DNA of 13,543 nt from a virus (lineage: Duplodnaviria; Heunggongvirae; Uroviricota; Caudoviricetes). The translations under genes were made by a program, and so were the position numbers. Of the stretch, positions 2 through 12,463 are shown in pieces. Numbering within the stretch: the stretch's first letter is position 1; each line of letters begins with the position of its first letter. The notes beneath the pieces are model-generated. The model was not told where the DNA came from. It searched no databases and saw nothing but the letters and a program-made list of their open reading frames with translations. The stretch lies in the IMG/VR virus record IMGVR_UViG_2657245483_000004. One strand, 5' to 3'.

Positions 2-1282
2 TTAATTTTTCATTGCTTCGTTATGGGGCATGGTTGGGGCAAACTCGCTTAACTGTGTATTTAACAAAGCTACCTGTGCATTATTGTTTTCAGACATCCA
101 TTTTCCGTATACCTGAAATACCATTTGCGCATCTGCATGGCCCATCTGGTTTGCTATAAATGCCGGGTTAGCACCAGCTGTCAGCGACCAGCAGGCATAA
201 GTATGTCTCGACTGATATGATTTTCGATGGCGGAGTCCGGCACGTTTTATCGCTGCGTCCCACATCTGCCTTATTGAGTCAACGGTAAAATGGTCACCAT
301 AATTTTTTACTCTCGCTGACACTTCAGGTTGAAAAACAAAGGTGCATTTATGTTTTTCTGTTCTGCCATACTCTCTGAGGTGAACATCAATGATATGCTC
401 TTTGCTCAGTCTCGTTAATGTCATCTGACTCCGGAGAGCGTCGATTGCTGGCTTAATAAGATGAATGACCCGATTGGTTCCCGCCTGTGTTTTTGGTACC
501 GTGAAACGGTCTTTTGCTAAATTTCTCCTGATCATCATTGTTCCATTTTTCAGATCTATGTCCTCCCATCCAAGTGCACACAGCTCACCAGGGCGAACGC
601 CAGTATAAACAGAAACACACCATAAATTTTTGGCTTGCTGATTTCTGCACGCATCGATAAGACGGATGAATTCCTCCCGCGAAAGAGGATCCGGAATGGT
701 TCTTGATTCCTTTAATGGCGAGATCCCCTTAAACGGGTTATCTGCCAGGTAACCGTTATCAACACCAAACTGGAACACGGCGTTAAGATTTGTCATGTAA
801 TTATTTACAGTTACAGCCGATCTCCCTGGTTGTGTAACAATATAGTTACTTTTGGGGATCTGGTATCCAGTCAGTAGCTCTTTACGAACCTCCAGTAATT
901 TTTCTTTATTAATCGATGAGGCAAGATTTTTTTCACCGATTATGCTCAGGATATTTTTGATGACGGCACGGTATGTGTTGAGTGATGTTTTTGCGACTTC
1001 AGTTTCTTTCAGTGCCAGAAATTTTTCAGCCAGTTCTTTTATGGTTAAATCTTGTCGGGTCTCACCAAATTTTTCCAGATTGCGTGAGGAGGGAAACTGT
1101 TTTGCATAGTCGAAAACACCAGTTTTTATTGCGTAACAAACAGAGGCGCGTAGCTCACCTGCAACGCGCCTGTTTTTTGCTGTGTCAGGAACCCCCAGGT
1201 TTTCCCTGACTCTTACGCCTTTATAAACAAACCAGATACGTAATTTCCCTCCATGGTTTTCCACGCCTGTCGGATATTTCAT
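2..1282 (-). CDS. int: Tyrosine-type phage integrase (site-specific recombinase)
   Basis: Track ORF 2..1297 (-) with TAA stop at 2-4. The C-terminal part shows tyrosine-recombinase hallmarks (...YQSRHTYACW...HADAQMVFQVYGKW...). Start placed at the second in-frame ATG (1280-1282, MKYPTGV...), which has a purine-rich stretch upstream; the first ATG at 1295-1297 has no SD. Terminal position next to an excisionase-like gene. Confidence 0.85.
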   Translation of the reverse strand: MKYPTGVENHGGKLRIWFVYKGVRVRENLGVPDTAKNRRVAGELRASVCYAIKTGVFDYAKQFPSSRNLEKFGETRQDLTIKELAEKFLALKETEVAKTSLNTYRAVIKNILSIIGEKNLASSINKEKLLEVRKELLTGYQIPKSNYIVTQPGRSAVTVNNYMTNLNAVFQFGVDNGYLADNPFKGISPLKESRTIPDPLSREEFIRLIDACRNQQAKNLWCVSVYTGVRPGELCALGWEDIDLKNGTMMIRRNLAKDRFTVPKTQAGTNRVIHLIKPAIDALRSQMTLTRLSKEHIIDVHLREYGRTEKHKCTFVFQPEVSARVKNYGDHFTVDSIRQMWDAAIKRAGLRHRKSYQSRHTYACWSLTAGANPAFIANQMGHADAQMVFQVYGKWMSENNNAQVALLNTQLSEFAPTMPHNEAMKN

Positions 1283-1316
1283 TTCAATTTCTCTCATTAG
1301 TTAGTGTGGCTTTTAG

Positions 1317-4750: not shown

Positions 4751-4808
4751 AAAAAGGGCGGCAGAGCAGTCACGGAGTAAAACTGATACCGCCAAACGTC
4801 ACCAGAAA
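4751..4808 (-). ncRNA. dicF: DicF small regulatory RNA
   Basis: Minus-strand sequence TTTCTGGTGACGTTTGGCGGTATCAGTTTTACTCCGTGACTGCTCTGCCGCCCTTTTT matches recalled DicF, including the 3' GC stem plus T-run (plus 4751-4770). Positioned between ydfC and dicB. Confidence 0.8.
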
Positions 4809-5974: not shown

Positions 5975-6613
5975 TTAAATATCTTGTTGAATTTTAAAGC
6001 ATACGCCCAATATGCAAGATAGATCATCCAGCATAATTGAAGGGTAGCGAGGATTCGTGGGGACTAAAAGAATATCCGGCCCTTCTATCTCCAGTTTACG
6101 AATGACAGGTGTTGTGGTCCCTTTGGGTAAGGCAAGGACAATATTTCCTGGTTGTACGGTTCGATCGGGATCAACAAAAACTGTTGAACCATTTGGGATG
6201 GAAACTCCCCCACCAGATGTTGACATACTGTCACTCTCTAGAACAACTGCAAAGGTATTGACCGGGATTTCTCCGACAAGCTGCACACAAGAGGTTATTG
6301 AGGAATTTTTCATATAATCACTCCAGCTTGCTGCCTGCTGAAGTGATAGTAGCGGAACCGTTTTTATCGGCGGTAAAGATAGATCAAGCGAATCACCTGT
6401 ATTTAACTCTCCTCCATTAAGAAGCCAATTTTCGTTTACTTTCAATATTTTTGCCAGTGAACTTATGTAACGCGAGGACGGCGCTCCTCCACCGTTCATC
6501 CATTGACTTACGGAGCCTTTTGATGCGCCAGTGCCATTGACAAGGTCTTTGCCTTTCAGGTTTAGCGCATGCATACGTTGGGTTATGCGTTCAGATATAG
6601 TTTGCTTGCTCAT
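5975..6613 (-). CDS. CI-like prophage repressor (XRE-family HTH N-terminus, S24/LexA-like peptidase C-terminus)
   Basis: Track ORF, 212 aa. N-terminal HTH-like segment (ISERITQRMHALNLKGKDLVNGTGASKGSVSQWMNG); C-terminal part of the size and Gly/Ser-rich character of S24 autoprotease domains. Divergent from a cro-like gene. Confidence 0.85.
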   Translation of the reverse strand: MSKQTISERITQRMHALNLKGKDLVNGTGASKGSVSQWMNGGGAPSSRYISSLAKILKVNENWLLNGGELNTGDSLDLSLPPIKTVPLLSLQQAASWSDYMKNSSITSCVQLVGEIPVNTFAVVLESDSMSTSGGGVSIPNGSTVFVDPDRTVQPGNIVLALPKGTTTPVIRKLEIEGPDILLVPTNPRYPSIMLDDLSCILGVCFKIQQDI

Positions 6614-6704
6614 GTTTTGATTTTAAAACACAGATGGTTTTGTTTCTTGACTTTCTTTGGTTTTGATTATTAAACTTTTGACGTTCAGTTTTATGGAGCG
6701 ACTC
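6614..6704. promoter_or_regulatory. Divergent immunity promoter/operator region (PRM-like and PR-like)
   Basis: 91-bp AT-rich intergenic region between the divergent repressor and cro-like genes. Contains repeated TTTTGA-containing blocks at about 6615, 6641, 6660 and 6676. Operator assignment is inferred. Confidence 0.45.
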
Positions 6705-6935
6705 ATGAAAAAATCAGAAGTATTAGGCTATTTTGGCGGAGTTGTTAAAACAGCCGCAGCTCTAGGAACGTCAAAAACCACAGTCAGCATGTGGGGGGAA
6801 GAGGTTCCGTGGAAATGGGCGTTGCTAATTCAGGCAGTCACTGCCGGGGCGCTCAAATATGAGTTACACATACCGACGGTTGTCATTCCCGGTTCTGATC
6901 ATAATCCGCCTTCTAACCAAGGGGGGGATTCATGA
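6705..6935 (+). CDS. Cro-like / YdaS-family HTH regulator
   Basis: Frame MKKSEVLGYFGGVVKTAAALGTSKTTVSMWG... with GGAG 6 nt upstream of ATG 6705. Track ORF 6657..6935 starts earlier without an SD. Small HTH protein divergent from the repressor. Confidence 0.7.
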   Translation: MKKSEVLGYFGGVVKTAAALGTSKTTVSMWGEEVPWKWALLIQAVTAGALKYELHIPTVVIPGSDHNPPSNQGGDS

Positions 6936-7357
6936 AAATCAAGCATGAACACATCCGCATGGCGATGAATGCCTGGGCGCATCCGGACGGCGAAAAAGTA
7001 CCGGCTGCGAAAATTACCAAAGCGTATTTCGAGCTGGGAATGACGTTCCCGGAACTGTATGACGACAGCCATCCGGAAGCCCTGGCTCGCAATACCCAGA
7101 AAATTTTCCGCTGGGTAGAGAAAGACACCCCTGATGCAGTTGAAAAAATTCAGGCGTTGTTACCAGCGATCGAAAAGGCAATGCCACCTTTGCTGGTGGC
7201 CAGAATGCGCAGCCACAGTTCAGCTTATTTTCGGGAGCTGGTGGAGACGCGGGAGCGACTGGTGAGAGACGCTGATGATTTTGTCGCAGTGGCAATCGCC
7301 GGTTTCAATCAGATGAACCGTGGTGGCCCGGCAGGAAATGCTGTGGCAGTACATTGA
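6932..7357 (+). CDS. YdaT-family protein (CII-position early regulator)
   Basis: Track ORF, 141 aa, begins MKIKHEHI... as recalled for YdaT-family prophage proteins. ATGA overlap with the cro-like stop (6932-6935); G-rich SD upstream. Confidence 0.7.
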   Translation: MKIKHEHIRMAMNAWAHPDGEKVPAAKITKAYFELGMTFPELYDDSHPEALARNTQKIFRWVEKDTPDAVEKIQALLPAIEKAMPPLLVARMRSHSSAYFRELVETRERLVRDADDFVAVAIAGFNQMNRGGPAGNAVAVH

Positions 7358-7428
7358 CTGACAATAGCCATATCGAATCGCTTCCGGCAACTCGTGAGTA
7401 AAAAGATTCGGTATCAGAAGAGGTGAGT

Positions 7429-8499
7429 ATGGCTAACGCCTGGCTCAGATTATGGCATGACATGCCAAATGACCCTAAGTGGCGAACAATTGCCAGGGTG
7501 TCAGGGCAGCCAATTGCAACAGTGATGGCAGTGTATATCCACCTCCTGGTGAGCGCGTCACGAAATGTCACGCGAGGTCACATTGATGTCACGACAGAAG
7601 ATTTGGCAAGTGCGCTCGACGTGACAGAAGAGGTAATTGATTCAATTTTGCAGACGATGCAGGGGCGGGTACTTGATGGTGATTTAATCACTGGATGGGA
7701 AAAACGCCAGGTGCTGAAAGAGGACAACGGCAATATTTCGCAAACCGCAAAATCTCCGGCAGAGCGCAAGAGGGCGCAGCGAGAGAGGGAAAGAAAGCGG
7801 GAACAAAATGGCGATTGTCACGGCGCGTCACGAAATGTCACGCACATGTCACGACGAGTCACGACAGATAAAGATACAGATAAAGATACAGATCAAGAAG
7901 ATCAAAACACTATGGTCCATGGCGTAAAAAACGCCACGAACCAGGCAGGGGATGTTCAGACCGTCAATCCTGGTCAGCCAGCAGGCACGACACCGGAAGC
8001 CGATTCAGCGTATGCGCTGAAAGCCGATTCGGGCGCTGTGCAGCAGGTGATGACCCCAAGGCCGGAGCAATCACACCAACTGCAGCAGCCTGAAGCCGAT
8101 TCCGCCATTCAGCGGGAAGCCGATCGGGTAGTCCCGGAAAACACCGGGCTGTCTGTGGGACGAGTGGATTATCCGGATGTGTTCGAACAGGTCTGGCGGG
8201 AGTACCCGTTGCGTGCCGGAGCAAACCCGAAGAAATCCGCTTTCAGTGCCTGGAAGGCCAGATTACGCGAGGGGGTGCCACCAGAGGCCATGCTGGATGG
8301 CGTGAGGCGTTACGCAAGATACTTGGCGGCTACCGGGAAAACGGGAACGGAATTTGTTCAGCGAGCGACGACGTTTTTTGGACCGGACCGGAATTTTGAG
8401 AACCCCTGGTTGCTCCCGGTAAGCGGCACGAACAACCAGCGTTGTGTGAATCATATTTCTGAACCGGATACCGAAATTCCACCGGGCTTCAGGGGGTAA
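7429..8499 (+). CDS. Phage replication initiation protein (O-like; DUF1376-type N-terminal domain)
   Basis: Track ORF 7423..8499 opens at GTG. ATG at 7429-7431 has GAGGTGA 5 nt upstream. N-terminus (MANAWLRLWHDMPNDPKWRTIARVSGQPIATVMAVYIHLLVSAS) resembles prophage replication proteins. Iteron-like repeats lie inside the gene, as with ori-lambda inside O. Confidence 0.75.
   Translation: MANAWLRLWHDMPNDPKWRTIARVSGQPIATVMAVYIHLLVSASRNVTRGHIDVTTEDLASALDVTEEVIDSILQTMQGRVLDGDLITGWEKRQVLKEDNGNISQTAKSPAERKRAQRERERKREQNGDCHGASRNVTHMSRRVTTDKDTDKDTDQEDQNTMVHGVKNATNQAGDVQTVNPGQPAGTTPEADSAYALKADSGAVQQVMTPRPEQSHQLQQPEADSAIQREADRVVPENTGLSVGRVDYPDVFEQVWREYPLRAGANPKKSAFSAWKARLREGVPPEAMLDGVRRYARYLAATGKTGTEFVQRATTFFGPDRNFENPWLLPVSGTNNQRCVNHISEPDTEIPPGFRG
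7553..7600. repeat. Iteron-like cluster 1: four GTCAC(G/A) copies at helical spacing
   Basis: GTCACG at 7557, 7567 and 7588, GTCACA at 7577 (spacings 10, 10, 11 bp). The 21-mer GCGCGTCACGAAATGTCACGC (7553-7573) is repeated exactly at 7823-7843. Confidence 0.55.
7817..7908. repeat. Iteron-like cluster 2 followed by an A-rich tandem repeat (candidate phage origin)
   Basis: Five GTCACG copies at 7817, 7827, 7837, 7848, 7858 (spacings 10, 10, 11, 10). Then GATAAAGATACA twice (7867-7890) and a degenerate third, GATCAAGAAGATCAAAAC (7891-7908). Confidence 0.55.
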
Positions 8500-8539
8500 G
8501 TGTTGATTTCTGGTCATGAGGTAATTTTCAGGAGGGCTT

Positions 8540-8962
8540 GTGGCAAAAGTTTTTACACAAGAAGAGCGAGAAAAAATTAAAGGGCAGGTTGTTGAACTCG
8601 TACGCCAGAGTGGGCGTGAGACGTTACGGCAACTGGAAGTCAAGACAGGTGCGACAAGATATCTGATGAGCGTTCTCGCAAGAGAGCTGGTTGCCAGCGG
8701 CGATGTATACAACTCCGGCTACGGGTTATTCCCCTCTGAACAGGCGCGTAAGGACTGGCAAAACGCCCGCAAAAAACTCTCGAGGGCAAAGGTGAAGAAA
8801 CCTGCTGTGGTTGATCCGGACCTTATCTGGTCATCACCTGACGGAGAAATACGTCGCTACGACAGTCGCCTAAACATAATCTGTCGCGAGTGCCGGAAGA
8901 GTGAAGCTATGCAGCGTGTACTGGCTTTCTATCAGGGTAATTTTCAGGAGGCGGTACTGTGA
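8540..8962 (+). CDS. Hypothetical early-region protein (140 aa)
   Basis: Track ORF. GTG start at 8540 preceded by AGGAGGG with a short spacer. Follows the replication initiator in the position where lambdoid phages usually encode a helicase loader, but it is too small and shows no Walker motifs. Confidence 0.55.
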   Translation: MAKVFTQEEREKIKGQVVELVRQSGRETLRQLEVKTGATRYLMSVLARELVASGDVYNSGYGLFPSEQARKDWQNARKKLSRAKVKKPAVVDPDLIWSSPDGEIRRYDSRLNIICRECRKSEAMQRVLAFYQGNFQEAVL

Positions 8963-9019
8963 GTGAAATTAGCTATCAGGCTTCAATTACCGCTGGCATT
9001 CGCATCAAAGGAGAGGAGC

Positions 9020-9376
9020 ATGGAAATAAAACCAGAGGATGAGTTAAGCAATATCGTTTTATTTCCGGTAAAAGAGGATGACCCTCGTAATCAGGTTAAT
9101 TTTCTTTATGAGCCATCGGAAAGACCATATTGTCATCACGCCTCTGTCCGGGTTGACGAAAAAGAGCGTCAGGTCCGCTGTAAAATCTGCGGTGCAGTTG
9201 TGGAGCCATTTGACTGGATGCTCTCTGTGGCGAAAAGAGAAACCAGACTGGCAGATGATGTAAGGCTCTTGCGTCAGGAGGAGCGGGAAAGGCGAAAAAA
9301 TATAGAAAAGCTAATTCAGATTGAGCGTAACGCGAAAGCGCGGATACGCAGGGCGACAAAATCCAGAACTGAATAA
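9020..9376 (+). CDS. Hypothetical protein with putative zinc ribbon and basic coiled-coil-like C-terminus
   Basis: ATG at 9020 with AGGAGAGGAG SD immediately upstream; the track's upstream GTG start at 8963 has no SD. Contains C-HH...C-x2-C (CHHASVRVDEKERQVRCKICG) and an R/K/E-rich C-terminus. Confidence 0.6.
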   Translation: MEIKPEDELSNIVLFPVKEDDPRNQVNFLYEPSERPYCHHASVRVDEKERQVRCKICGAVVEPFDWMLSVAKRETRLADDVRLLRQEERERRKNIEKLIQIERNAKARIRRATKSRTE

Positions 9377-9469
9377 TTAAATTTAGCTCTGTTAAAAATT
9401 TAATCCTTAACCGGAGGGATTTCTGCACCCTCAGAACATCAGGAGGCCGCCCGAAAGGGCGGTAGTTAA

Positions 9470-9652
9470 ATGCGAAAGTTTAAAATAATTATTGAAACGG
9501 GAATAGCCGGTGGAGATTTCGAGGATGAATTCGAAGTGGATGATGATGCGACGCCTGATGAAATACATGACGAAGCAAAAGATATTTTCTTTAACTACTG
9601 CAATTACTCATATCACGAAATAAAAGACGAAGAGGAAGAACAAAATGGCTGA
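9470..9652 (+). CDS. Strongly acidic small protein (60 aa), function unknown
   Basis: Track ORF. About one third of residues are D/E (DFEDEFEVDDDATPDEIHDE...KDEEEEQ). An AGGAGG SD (9441-9446) is separated from the ATG by a GC hairpin. Confidence 0.55.
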   Translation: MRKFKIIIETGIAGGDFEDEFEVDDDATPDEIHDEAKDIFFNYCNYSYHEIKDEEEEQNG

Positions 9653-10567: not shown

Positions 10568-10611
10568 GACTGCGGGTGCTTGAGGCTATCTGTCTCAGGC
10601 ATGAACACCAA

Positions 10612-10683
10612 AAGGCAGATAGAGAAAAGCCCCAGTTAACATTACGCGTCCTGCAAGACGCTTAACATTAATCTGAGGCCATA
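10612..10683 (-). ncRNA. Putative Sok-like antisense RNA (approximate bounds)
   Basis: Minus-strand promoter-like TTGACC (plus 10714-10719), 18-bp spacer, TAATCT. The transcript would be antisense to the mok start and leader. A minus-strand hairpin (GCGTC-ttgcag-GACGC) is followed by a T-rich stretch. Inferred by analogy with hok/sok loci; ends not determined. Confidence 0.3.
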
Positions 10684-10686
10684 TCT

Positions 10687-10746
10687 ATGCGACACATAGA
10701 GATTAGCCTCTTACGGACCGAAAGGTCAAGGAGAAGCAGGCTATGA
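10687..10746 (+). CDS. mok-like leader ORF (19 codons) coupled to hok
   Basis: ATG 10687 ... TGA 10744-10746, overlapping the hok ATG (10743-10745) as ATGA; AAGGAGAAG lies within it just upstream of hok. Shorter than the plasmid R1 mok, so assignment is by position. Confidence 0.4.
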   Translation: MRHIEISLLRTERSRRSRL

Positions 10747-11345: not shown

Positions 11346-12395
11346 GTGCGGGTATTACTTCGACCTGTTCTGGTACCGGAACTCGGGGTGGTGATCGTTA
11401 AGCCGGGCCGTGAATCCATGCCGGTATTCCACAATACCCGGGTACTGGTGGAGCCGGAACCGAAAAGCATGCGTAATCTGCCGTCCGGGGTCGTTCCTGC
11501 CGTTCGCCAGCCGCTGGTGGAAGACAAAACATTGCTGCCGTTTTTCAGTAACGCACGGGTGATTCGTGCTGCTGGTGGTGCTGGTGCATTGTCTGACTGG
11601 CTGTTGCGCCATATTAAATCCTGCCAGTGGCCACACGGCGATTATCACCACAGTGAAACCGTCATTCACCGTTATGGTACCGGCGCAATGGTGTTGTGCT
11701 GGCACTGCGACAACCAGCTGCGTGACCAGACATCCGAATCACTCGAGCAACTTGCTCATCAAAACCTGTCAGCATGGATGATTGACGTCATCGGTCACGC
11801 AATAAGCGGTACGCAGGAGCGTGAATTATCTCTGGCTGAATTATCCTGGTGGGCGGTCCGAAATCAGGTGGCGGATGCGCTACCTGAAGCGGTATTACGT
11901 CGCTCGCTGGGATTACCAGCGGAAAAAATCCGCTCAATGTACCGCGAAAGCGACATCGTACCGGGAGAGCAGACCGCCACCAGCATATTGAAACAGCGCA
12001 CAAAAAATCTTGCACTGTTGCCTCACGCCCACCAGGAACAACACCCACTACAGGAAAGGACGGTGGTAAGCATCACCGTTGATCCTGAGTCTCCGGAATC
12101 TTTCATGAAGCTACCTAAACGTCGCCGCTGGGTTAAGGAGAAATACACTCGCTGGGTGAAGACACAGCCGTGTGCTTGCTGCGGTATGCCAGCCGACGAT
12201 CCGCATCATCTGATTGGTCACGGGCAGGGCGGAATGGGAACCAAAGCACATGATCTTTTTGTGTTGCCTTTATGCAGAAAGCATCACGACGAACTGCATA
12301 CGGATACCGTGGCATTTGAAGAGAAGTATGGCTCCCAACTGGAGCTGATTTTTCGATTTATCGATCACGCGCTGGCAATTGGTGTGCTGGCCTAA
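11346..12395 (+). CDS. ydfU: DUF968-family protein (YdfU-like) with C-terminal Cys/His cluster
   Basis: Track ORF, 349 aa. GTG start with GGAGG 8 nt upstream; the rem stop TAA at 11342-11344 ends one nucleotide before the GTG. C-terminal PCACCGMPADDPHHLIGHGQGG...LPLCRKHHDELH. Confidence 0.8.
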   Translation: MRVLLRPVLVPELGVVIVKPGRESMPVFHNTRVLVEPEPKSMRNLPSGVVPAVRQPLVEDKTLLPFFSNARVIRAAGGAGALSDWLLRHIKSCQWPHGDYHHSETVIHRYGTGAMVLCWHCDNQLRDQTSESLEQLAHQNLSAWMIDVIGHAISGTQERELSLAELSWWAVRNQVADALPEAVLRRSLGLPAEKIRSMYRESDIVPGEQTATSILKQRTKNLALLPHAHQEQHPLQERTVVSITVDPESPESFMKLPKRRRWVKEKYTRWVKTQPCACCGMPADDPHHLIGHGQGGMGTKAHDLFVLPLCRKHHDELHTDTVAFEEKYGSQLELIFRFIDHALAIGVLA

Positions 12396-12453: not shown

Positions 12454-12463
12454 NNNNNNNNNN
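12454..12463. other. Run of 10 N (assembly gap or masked bases)
   Basis: Literal n characters in the sequence; they interrupt the Q-like ORF. Confidence 0.99.

Follow-up and report, generated by a model that had tools for sequence, protein, structure and literature searches.

It has been proven experimentally for several phages that a replication origin can lie inside the gene of its own initiator: this is the case for O and ori-lambda of phage lambda (PMC7466680), for gp38 and oriL of SPP1 (PMC6316719), and for ORF13 of TP901-1 and Rep2009 of Tuc2009 (PMC8965321). The replisome organizers of SPP1, TP901-1 and Tuc2009 bind direct repeats in their own gene, beside an AT-rich unwinding element (PMC6316719, PMC8965321), and in the O protein of Shiga toxin (Stx) phages two extra direct repeats (iterons) add 13 amino acids (PMC7466680). 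The principle of an iteron origin in an initiator gene is classical, and the gene studied here often already bears the label 'phage replisome organizer' in RefSeq. We analysed a stretch of 13,543 nucleotides (IMG/VR record IMGVR_UViG_2657245483_000004, referred to below as the window), which is the early region of an Escherichia coli lambdoid prophage. From its sequence and from comparison with homologues we consider, with good confidence, that positions 7553-7943 form the vegetative theta-type replication origin of this prophage, located inside its own initiator gene.

The region combines helically phased direct repeats with an adjacent, easily melted tract; it is located in the initiator gene and is maintained at the DNA level. 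Its elements are as follows:

7429-8499, plus strand: replication initiator gene, 356 amino acids (phrog_3729)
7557-7593, plus strand: iteron cluster 1, four direct GTCAC(G/A) copies starting at 7557, 7567, 7577 (GTCACA) and 7588
7620-7625, minus strand: inverted iteron copy GTCACG, 27 bp to the right of cluster 1
7817-7863, plus strand: iteron cluster 2, five direct GTCACG copies starting at 7817, 7827, 7837, 7848 and 7858, in the interdomain linker
7553-7573 and 7823-7843, plus strand: 21-nucleotide exact repeat GCGCGTCACGAAATGTCACGC, its two copies 270 bp apart
7864-7912, plus strand: A-rich, purine-rich tract, ACAGATAAAGAT x2.9 followed by CAAGAAGATCAAAACACTA, candidate DNA unwinding element
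7913-7943, unstranded: inverted repeat TGGTCCATGGCGT-AAAAA-ACGCCACGAACCA, its arms pairing (Watson-Crick) at 11 of 13 positions, where the C-terminal module begins

An earlier, sequence-only reading of this DNA had described nine GTCAC(G/A) copies in clusters of four and five, an exact 21-bp repeat common to both clusters, and a second cluster running straight into an A-rich tandem repeat of two copies plus a degenerate third. We recovered all of these at the positions given for them. The spacing is 10, 10 and 11 bp in cluster 1 and 10, 10, 11 and 10 bp in cluster 2, and Tandem Repeats Finder returned ACAGATAAAGAT x2.9 at 7864-7898 with 95% matches. Every element listed by that reading is real; the inverted copy and the palindrome at 7913-7943 had been overlooked. 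With the inverted copy, ten iterons fall within about 310 bp where 0.14-0.26 would be expected (Poisson P about 1e-13 to 1e-16). No hexamer of the window is more strongly clustered than GTCACG, and no further iteron-like cluster was found elsewhere in these 13.5 kb. The 21-nucleotide repeat would reflect concerted evolution (gene conversion) between the two clusters. As for helical phasing from one cluster to the other, the Rayleigh test was significant only at a period of exactly 10.0 bp (P 0.003) and not at 10.4-10.6 bp, and we thus draw no conclusion on looping.

We then compared 66 loci carrying relatives of the initiator N-domain, one per species, from gamma-, beta- and alpha-proteobacteria, Acidobacteria and others, of which 61 provided usable genes. 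The sequence-only reading had proposed such a comparison and had stated that absence of the repeats from homologues would speak against it; they are present in 50-56 of the 61 genes. Both clusters occur in 50 genes, at the same positions (gene nucleotides ~130-165 and ~350-460), and cluster 2 in 56, with iterons of a cluster spaced by 10 bp (160 cases) or, less often, by 11 bp (28 cases). The iteron core depends on the lineage (tGTCACG, tGTAACGc, cGAACGC, GTGACG or ACTACG, all of which keep ACG), but it is identical in class between both clusters of one gene, and the encoded peptides shift with it in loop and linker alike. These matched cores in the two arrays are indirect support for specific iteron binding by the initiator. 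Cluster 2 is the likely core binding array. Among E. coli variants the cores are invariant and the spacers differ; cluster 1 comprises either four or six copies, the difference being a 21-nucleotide (7-codon) block of two iterons. Three genes from low-GC hosts (L033, L035 and L050) lack cluster 1 and have only some two degenerate iterons, and two other genes (L054, L055) have neither iterons nor tract.

As the sequence-only reading had also indicated, the repeats are coding: the region is in frame inside the open reading frame 7429-8499 and specifies the ASRNVT... and DKDTDKDTD segments. The repeats could therefore be a by-product of the protein sequence, that is, of a duplicated peptide (ASRNVT...VTT) and a low-complexity DK linker, with no function as DNA. 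Indeed, ASRNVT occurs twice, the linker is rich in D, K and T, and loop and linker have a common tripeptide in 96 of 136 family representatives. However, the nine direct copies are spread over all three reading frames, giving SR, VT and H/CH peptides, which means that the repeat is one of DNA and not of peptide. When synonymous codons were permuted so that the protein was kept, the repeats were lost: the number of identical hexamers phased at 9-12 bp exceeded that of all 200 shuffles in 41 of the 61 genes. Codon choice tells the same story. At the cluster-1 sites of 21 GTCAC-class genes from different genera (GC content 42-69%), codons are nearly fixed to the synonym that forms the iteron, compared with their use elsewhere in the same genes (Ser TCA, 95% vs 12%; Val GTC, 100% vs 20%; Thr ACG, 98% vs 27%; Gly GGT, 100% vs 16%; His CAC, 100% vs 57%). 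Moreover, the inverted copy is kept as GA(C/T)GTGAC in about 20 of 24 GTCAC-class genes, in two of them despite a peptide DCD instead of DVT, and the GTAAC-class gene L030 has GTTAC at this site. We therefore give the by-product explanation next to no weight.

The tract that follows cluster 2 behaves as expected for an unwinding element. Positions 7863-7913 have a GC content of 32.5% and an AT skew of +0.63, and they are the least stable 50-mer of the early-right operon (6657-9376; z 2.47, top 0.7% of the window). The 40-mer of lowest stability starts -15 to +40 nucleotides (mostly 0-15) from the last cluster-2 iteron in 53 of 56 homologous genes, and this position is independent of the GC content of the gene (38-69%). 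Of 53 genes, 51 have the motif AGATA in the 45 nucleotides that follow the last iteron, as against 6 of 473 control windows. The tract in homologues usually starts (C/T)AGATAAAGATA and has a 6-nucleotide period with 2-8 repeats and a coding strand that is 74% purine. From this comparison, it appears to be a conserved purine-rich (AGATAA/AGATAC)n motif, which is more than AT-richness. We also observed that the tract is microsatellite-like, with 2 to 8 or more AGATAA/AGATAC units (for example at gene nucleotides ~375-420 of L050; also in L034, L038, L056 and L064). GATC sites are not enriched; two lie within the tract, at 7891 and 7900.

The palindrome lies directly to the right of the tract and recurs in the two other E. 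coli/Shigella genes with the same C-terminal module, those of the Stx prophages described below (L002 and L004). In these two it shows one compensatory change, from T-A to A-T, and two different repairs of a mismatched pair. An alternative C-module has CGCGCACGTGCGCG at the palindrome position, and distant homologues have hairpins with unrelated arms, often with a T(A/G)AC loop, such as ACTACTCC-TAAC-GGAGTAGT and TCTCTCTCTCC-TGAC-GGAGAGAGAGA. Hairpins with a score of at least 7 were commoner at this position than in control segments (34% vs 8%, Mann-Whitney P 1e-7), an enrichment that is suggestive only since the hairpin was chosen per sequence and the loci are related. The palindrome may act as a single-stranded DNA hairpin on which helicase or primase is loaded, or it may limit unwinding. 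With the conserved (AGATAA)n tract beside it, the hairpin suggests that unwinding or helicase loading includes sequence-specific steps, beyond AT-richness.

Looking at mosaic genes in E. coli, we found that they have in common with the window either 7429-7886, which covers N-domain, iterons and start of the tract, or 7904-8497, with the palindrome and the C-module. Matches to the N-module stop at 7886 and those to the C-module begin at 7904, so that the break falls exactly at the tract, a point in favour of the origin reading; N-domain, iterons and tract start would move together as one specificity module. A different explanation is that the arrays and the microsatellite-like tract are mainly substrates for recombination or slippage that make mosaic initiator genes and are kept for module exchange. 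The position of the junctions inside the tract, at 7886-7904, agrees with this, as do the iteron and AGATAA copy numbers, which differ between relatives. Such a role, however, leaves unexplained the strict 10-bp phasing, the invariant cores with variable spacers, the matching of the two arrays and the conservation over phyla. Since junctions at the origin are also found between lambdoid O genes, whose origin is proven, recombination and origin roles can coexist. As the main reason for the layout, we find module exchange very unlikely.

The same C-module is joined to another N-domain in the initiators of the O157:H7 86-24 Stx prophage (L004:1981-3072) and of the Shigella phage 75/02 Stx (L002:1894-2982). 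Homology between this O157-type N-domain and that of the window was tried and not detected (hhalign probability 0.15). The two genes have three copies of AAGGGGCTT at 11-bp spacing inside the N-domain and three more 256 bp downstream; the second AAGGGGCTT array is followed by a purine-rich (AAGAACAGGAAC)n linker and then by the palindrome. With no detectable homology between the N-domains, the common layout must come from analogy or from very old divergence. That an unrelated N-domain is accompanied by the same layout argues in favour of the origin reading.

From end to end, the gene 7429-8499 matches phrog_3729 'replication initiation protein' (E 1.7e-256), and it is 98-99% identical to the replication genes of the isolated phages Tritos, Evi and vB_EcoS-689R5. 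A near-full-length copy of the gene is present in 1647 of 5426 complete E. coli genomes (~30%), CFT073 included, and the N-domain family counts about 2000 representatives at 50% clustering. The protein divides as follows:

residues ~10-95: predicted N-terminal winged helix
residues ~100-200: basic stretch and linker
residues ~200-356: C-terminal module, putatively DnaD/DnaT-like

Its N-part (residues 1-~160) and C-part (residues ~200-356) match separate PHROGs. In Pfam no family reached E <= 0.01, and Phage_rep_O, Phage_rep_org_N and DnaB_2 were not matched. The structural model of the N-domain resembles the DnaD N-terminal winged helix. A lambda O homologue was considered and rejected, Phage_rep_O being unmatched and the fold of the N-domain apparently DnaD-like; some phage records use the name 'DNA replication protein O', but as a label for function and no more. 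Matches to replisome organizers are weak (phrog_4880, E 6e-6; phrog_5968, E 2e-4), and TIGR01714 gave E 0.016 with 15.4 bits, below its cut-off of 49.8.

As for the C-terminal part, residues 122-356 match phrog_1701 'DnaD-like helicase loader' (E 3.8e-63); the alignment of C-module homologues is shallow and consists of near-identical sequences or frameshifted fragments. The last 24 residues (8425-8499), with the tail NNQRCVNHISEPDTEIPPGFRG, show a weak likeness to the C-terminus of DnaT (NF002770, E 0.0015, 18 bits vs 201; PDB 6aep, E 0.02). We did not assign the protein to the DnaT family, as the resemblance is confined to these residues and the window protein lacks PF17948, the DnaT DNA-binding domain, which the alternative C-module of EC6868 does carry. 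Over its final ~60 nucleotides the gene is ~92% identical to the corresponding stretch of initiator genes that differ from it elsewhere, one of which is annotated 'phage O protein family'. The tail common to these proteins may be a portable peptide for contact with the host.

In the N-domain, the residues specified by cluster 1 (ASRNVTRGHIDVT) close helix 29-45 and form loop 46-55. No other part of the domain varies as much as this loop, which takes insertions of extra iterons (+7, +14 and +21 amino acids); gain or loss of whole iteron units in the loop is seen as +21 nucleotides in EC6868, O121 and Escherichia albertii. Outside residues ~44-56 the N-domain is nearly identical across iteron classes, so that the loop is the only part that varies with the core: SRNVT-RG-HxxVT goes with GTCACG and SNATE-RG-RTQ with CGAACGC. 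In addition, the invariant Arg-Gly of the loop parallels the ACG invariant in all cores, and the helix that would usually serve for recognition is acidic. It is conceivable, though we think it improbable, that the loop encoded by cluster 1 is itself the stretch of the initiator that reads the iterons. If so, binding site and reading head would be written in the same nucleotides, and one DNA change would alter both, providing a built-in route to new origin specificities.

Several points weigh against the origin reading. Cluster 1 is missing in four homologues that retain cluster 2 (L043, L044, L064 and L068), and conversely the one gene for an HNH fusion that was read (L072:4001-4546) has four cluster-1 iterons and the inverted copy, without cluster 2 or the A-rich tract. 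No DnaA boxes (TTATNCACA, one mismatch allowed) were found near the region, and their total is at chance level. The homologues share descent, and locus counts thus overstate independence. Because the iterons overlap or adjoin the coding sequence of the N-domain, their co-variation with it is partly linkage and does not prove that it is the initiator which binds them. In the N-domain model the canonical recognition helix (residues 67-77) is acidic, and the N-terminal domain of DnaD is an oligomerisation scaffold, so that neither singles out a DNA-reading surface. Finally, in the literature on replisome organizers, on oriJ/Rac and on non-lambdoid Stx replication (Eru types), we found no binding, unwinding or replication experiment for this family; no paper on the origin of this initiator family was found either.

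Cluster 1 appears to be accessory, being missing in these four homologues and retained by N-domain-HNH fusion genes that have no cluster 2 or tract. The inverted copy would be an accessory site as well, and cluster 2 with the tract the universal core. The fusions form a group of short proteins (~180-190 amino acids; P0042, P0060, P0061, P0073, P0099, P0101 and P0109) in which the N-domain is joined to an HNH nuclease (PF01844), and they could be iteron-targeted nucleases or competitors of related phages. The same facts bear on another alternative, in which the repeats are protein-binding sites for regulation (autoregulation of the early-right operon, titration or handcuffing-type copy control) and the origin is elsewhere in the prophage. 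The existence of two separate arrays, the dispensability of cluster 1 in some homologues and its retention in fusion genes without an A-rich tract are in line with this alternative, and in the P1 (incA, incC) and F plasmids split iteron sets have established control functions. An operator, however, requires neither the low-stability tract (53 of 56 genes) nor the AGATA motif (51 of 53), and the window has no other iteron-like cluster. On balance, we judge purely regulatory sites to be unlikely.

If 7553-7943 is indeed the origin, replication could proceed as follows. Loss of repressor would lead to transcription of the early-right operon (cro-like gene, YdaT/CII-like gene and initiator gene). 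The predicted winged-helix N-domain, with its apparent likeness to that of DnaD, would bind the iterons head-to-tail on one face of the helix; initiator oligomerisation, possibly bridging the two arrays ~230 bp apart, would strain and melt the adjacent A-rich tract; and the DnaD/DnaT-like C-terminal module would then recruit the helicase machinery. We propose that this machinery is that of the host because no phage-encoded loader adjoins the initiator gene: between 8540 and 9376, 3' of the initiator, there is no helicase or helicase-loader gene, the next ones being DUF977 (Ren-like PHROG) and a zinc-ribbon open reading frame. Relatives of the initiator are accompanied at this loader position by P-like, DnaC-like or DnaB-like genes, namely a lambda P-like protein in EC6868, a DnaC-like ATPase in the O157 and 75/02 Stx prophages and a DnaB-like helicase in Pseudomonas phages. 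Neither the window nor Tritos has such a partner, and Tritos is a viable phage.

The rest of the window is organized as follows:

2-1297, minus strand: integrase
after the integrase in the gene order, minus strand: excisionase
after the excisionase, minus strand: RecE-like exonuclease
4756-4807, minus strand: DicF small RNA (Rfam, 76.7 bits)
5975-6613, minus strand: S24 repressor
6647-6676, plus strand: promoter-like site TTGACT-18-TAAACT ahead of the cro-like gene, a consensus match only
6657-6935: P22-Cro/YdaS-like (cro-like) gene
6932-7357: YdaT/CII-like gene
downstream of the initiator gene, in this order: DUF977 gene, hok/sok locus and DUF968 gene (11346-12395)
10574-10745, plus strand: sok antitoxin RNA of the hok/sok locus (Rfam, 106.7 bits)

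The site TTGACT-18-TAAACT is the probable early-right promoter and would drive transcription through the origin; a promoter and terminator scan of 6500-9500 gave counts equal to the shuffle expectation. DicF and hok/sok are typical cargo of Qin/Rac-like prophages, and 10 consecutive N (masked bases or an assembly gap) are present at 12454-12463, just 3' of the DUF968 gene.

In the plasmid collection, the matches were restricted to chromosome-like records, large prophage-bearing E. coli plasmids and two 50.9-kb circular Pseudomonas phage episomes, which give no independent proof of plasmid-type replication. The initiator gene is common in E. coli and present in isolated temperate phages, yet it is without a Pfam model. 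Knowing its origin would give a handle on prophage induction, on copy number and on the exchange of replication modules between phages, and the natural series of matched iteron classes that share ACG is material for studying a joint specificity change of initiator and sites.

How does this locus compare with the known systems? Short direct repeats in two groups, one of them beside an unwinding element, are found in iteron plasmids (P1 incC/incA, F incB/incC) and in SaPI origins, where two sets flank an AT-rich region. In these cases, however, the iterons flank the rep gene or are intergenic, and the Rep proteins are unrelated to the window initiator. The window protein is linked to the replisome organizers of SPP1, TP901-1 and Tuc2009 by the name that RefSeq gives it, 'phage replisome organizer', and by weak PHROG and TIGR01714 matches of its N-domain. 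Unlike these organizers, the window family is found in Proteobacteria and Acidobacteria, its similarity is below the family cut-off and its origin is predicted; its iteron form and conserved (AGATAA)n tract also set it apart from the Gram-positive organizers.

The sequence-only reading had likened the region to ori-lambda, as iterons and an AT-rich unwinding element embedded in an initiator gene. Our computational results support a candidate origin of this kind, and the parallel holds for the layout. In both cases the direct repeats are in the middle of the gene, between the parts coding for N-terminal DNA binding and C-terminal helicase recruitment (predicted roles in the window initiator), an A-rich, strand-asymmetric tract comes after the repeats, and the origin is in an early operon of the pR type. 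In lambda a palindrome follows the A-rich tract of ori-lambda, and the window has the same order of iterons, tract and palindrome. As in Stx O, extra iterons lengthen the protein, two iterons corresponding to 7 amino acids in the window family, and as with ori-lambda and O, N-domain and iterons would act as an exchangeable specificity module. The parallel nevertheless has to be refined, since the tract is a conserved motif, cluster 1 is sometimes missing, the inverted iteron and the palindrome form part of the element too, and the initiator appears DnaD-like and is not an O homologue. The iterons of the window are 6-7-bp cores every 10-11 bp, whereas those of ori-lambda are 19-bp dyad-symmetric sites about two turns apart, and no P-like loader gene comes after the initiator as it does in lambda. 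Finally, unlike ori-lambda, the window has a second array and an inverted iteron within the very sequence that codes for the predicted DNA-binding domain.

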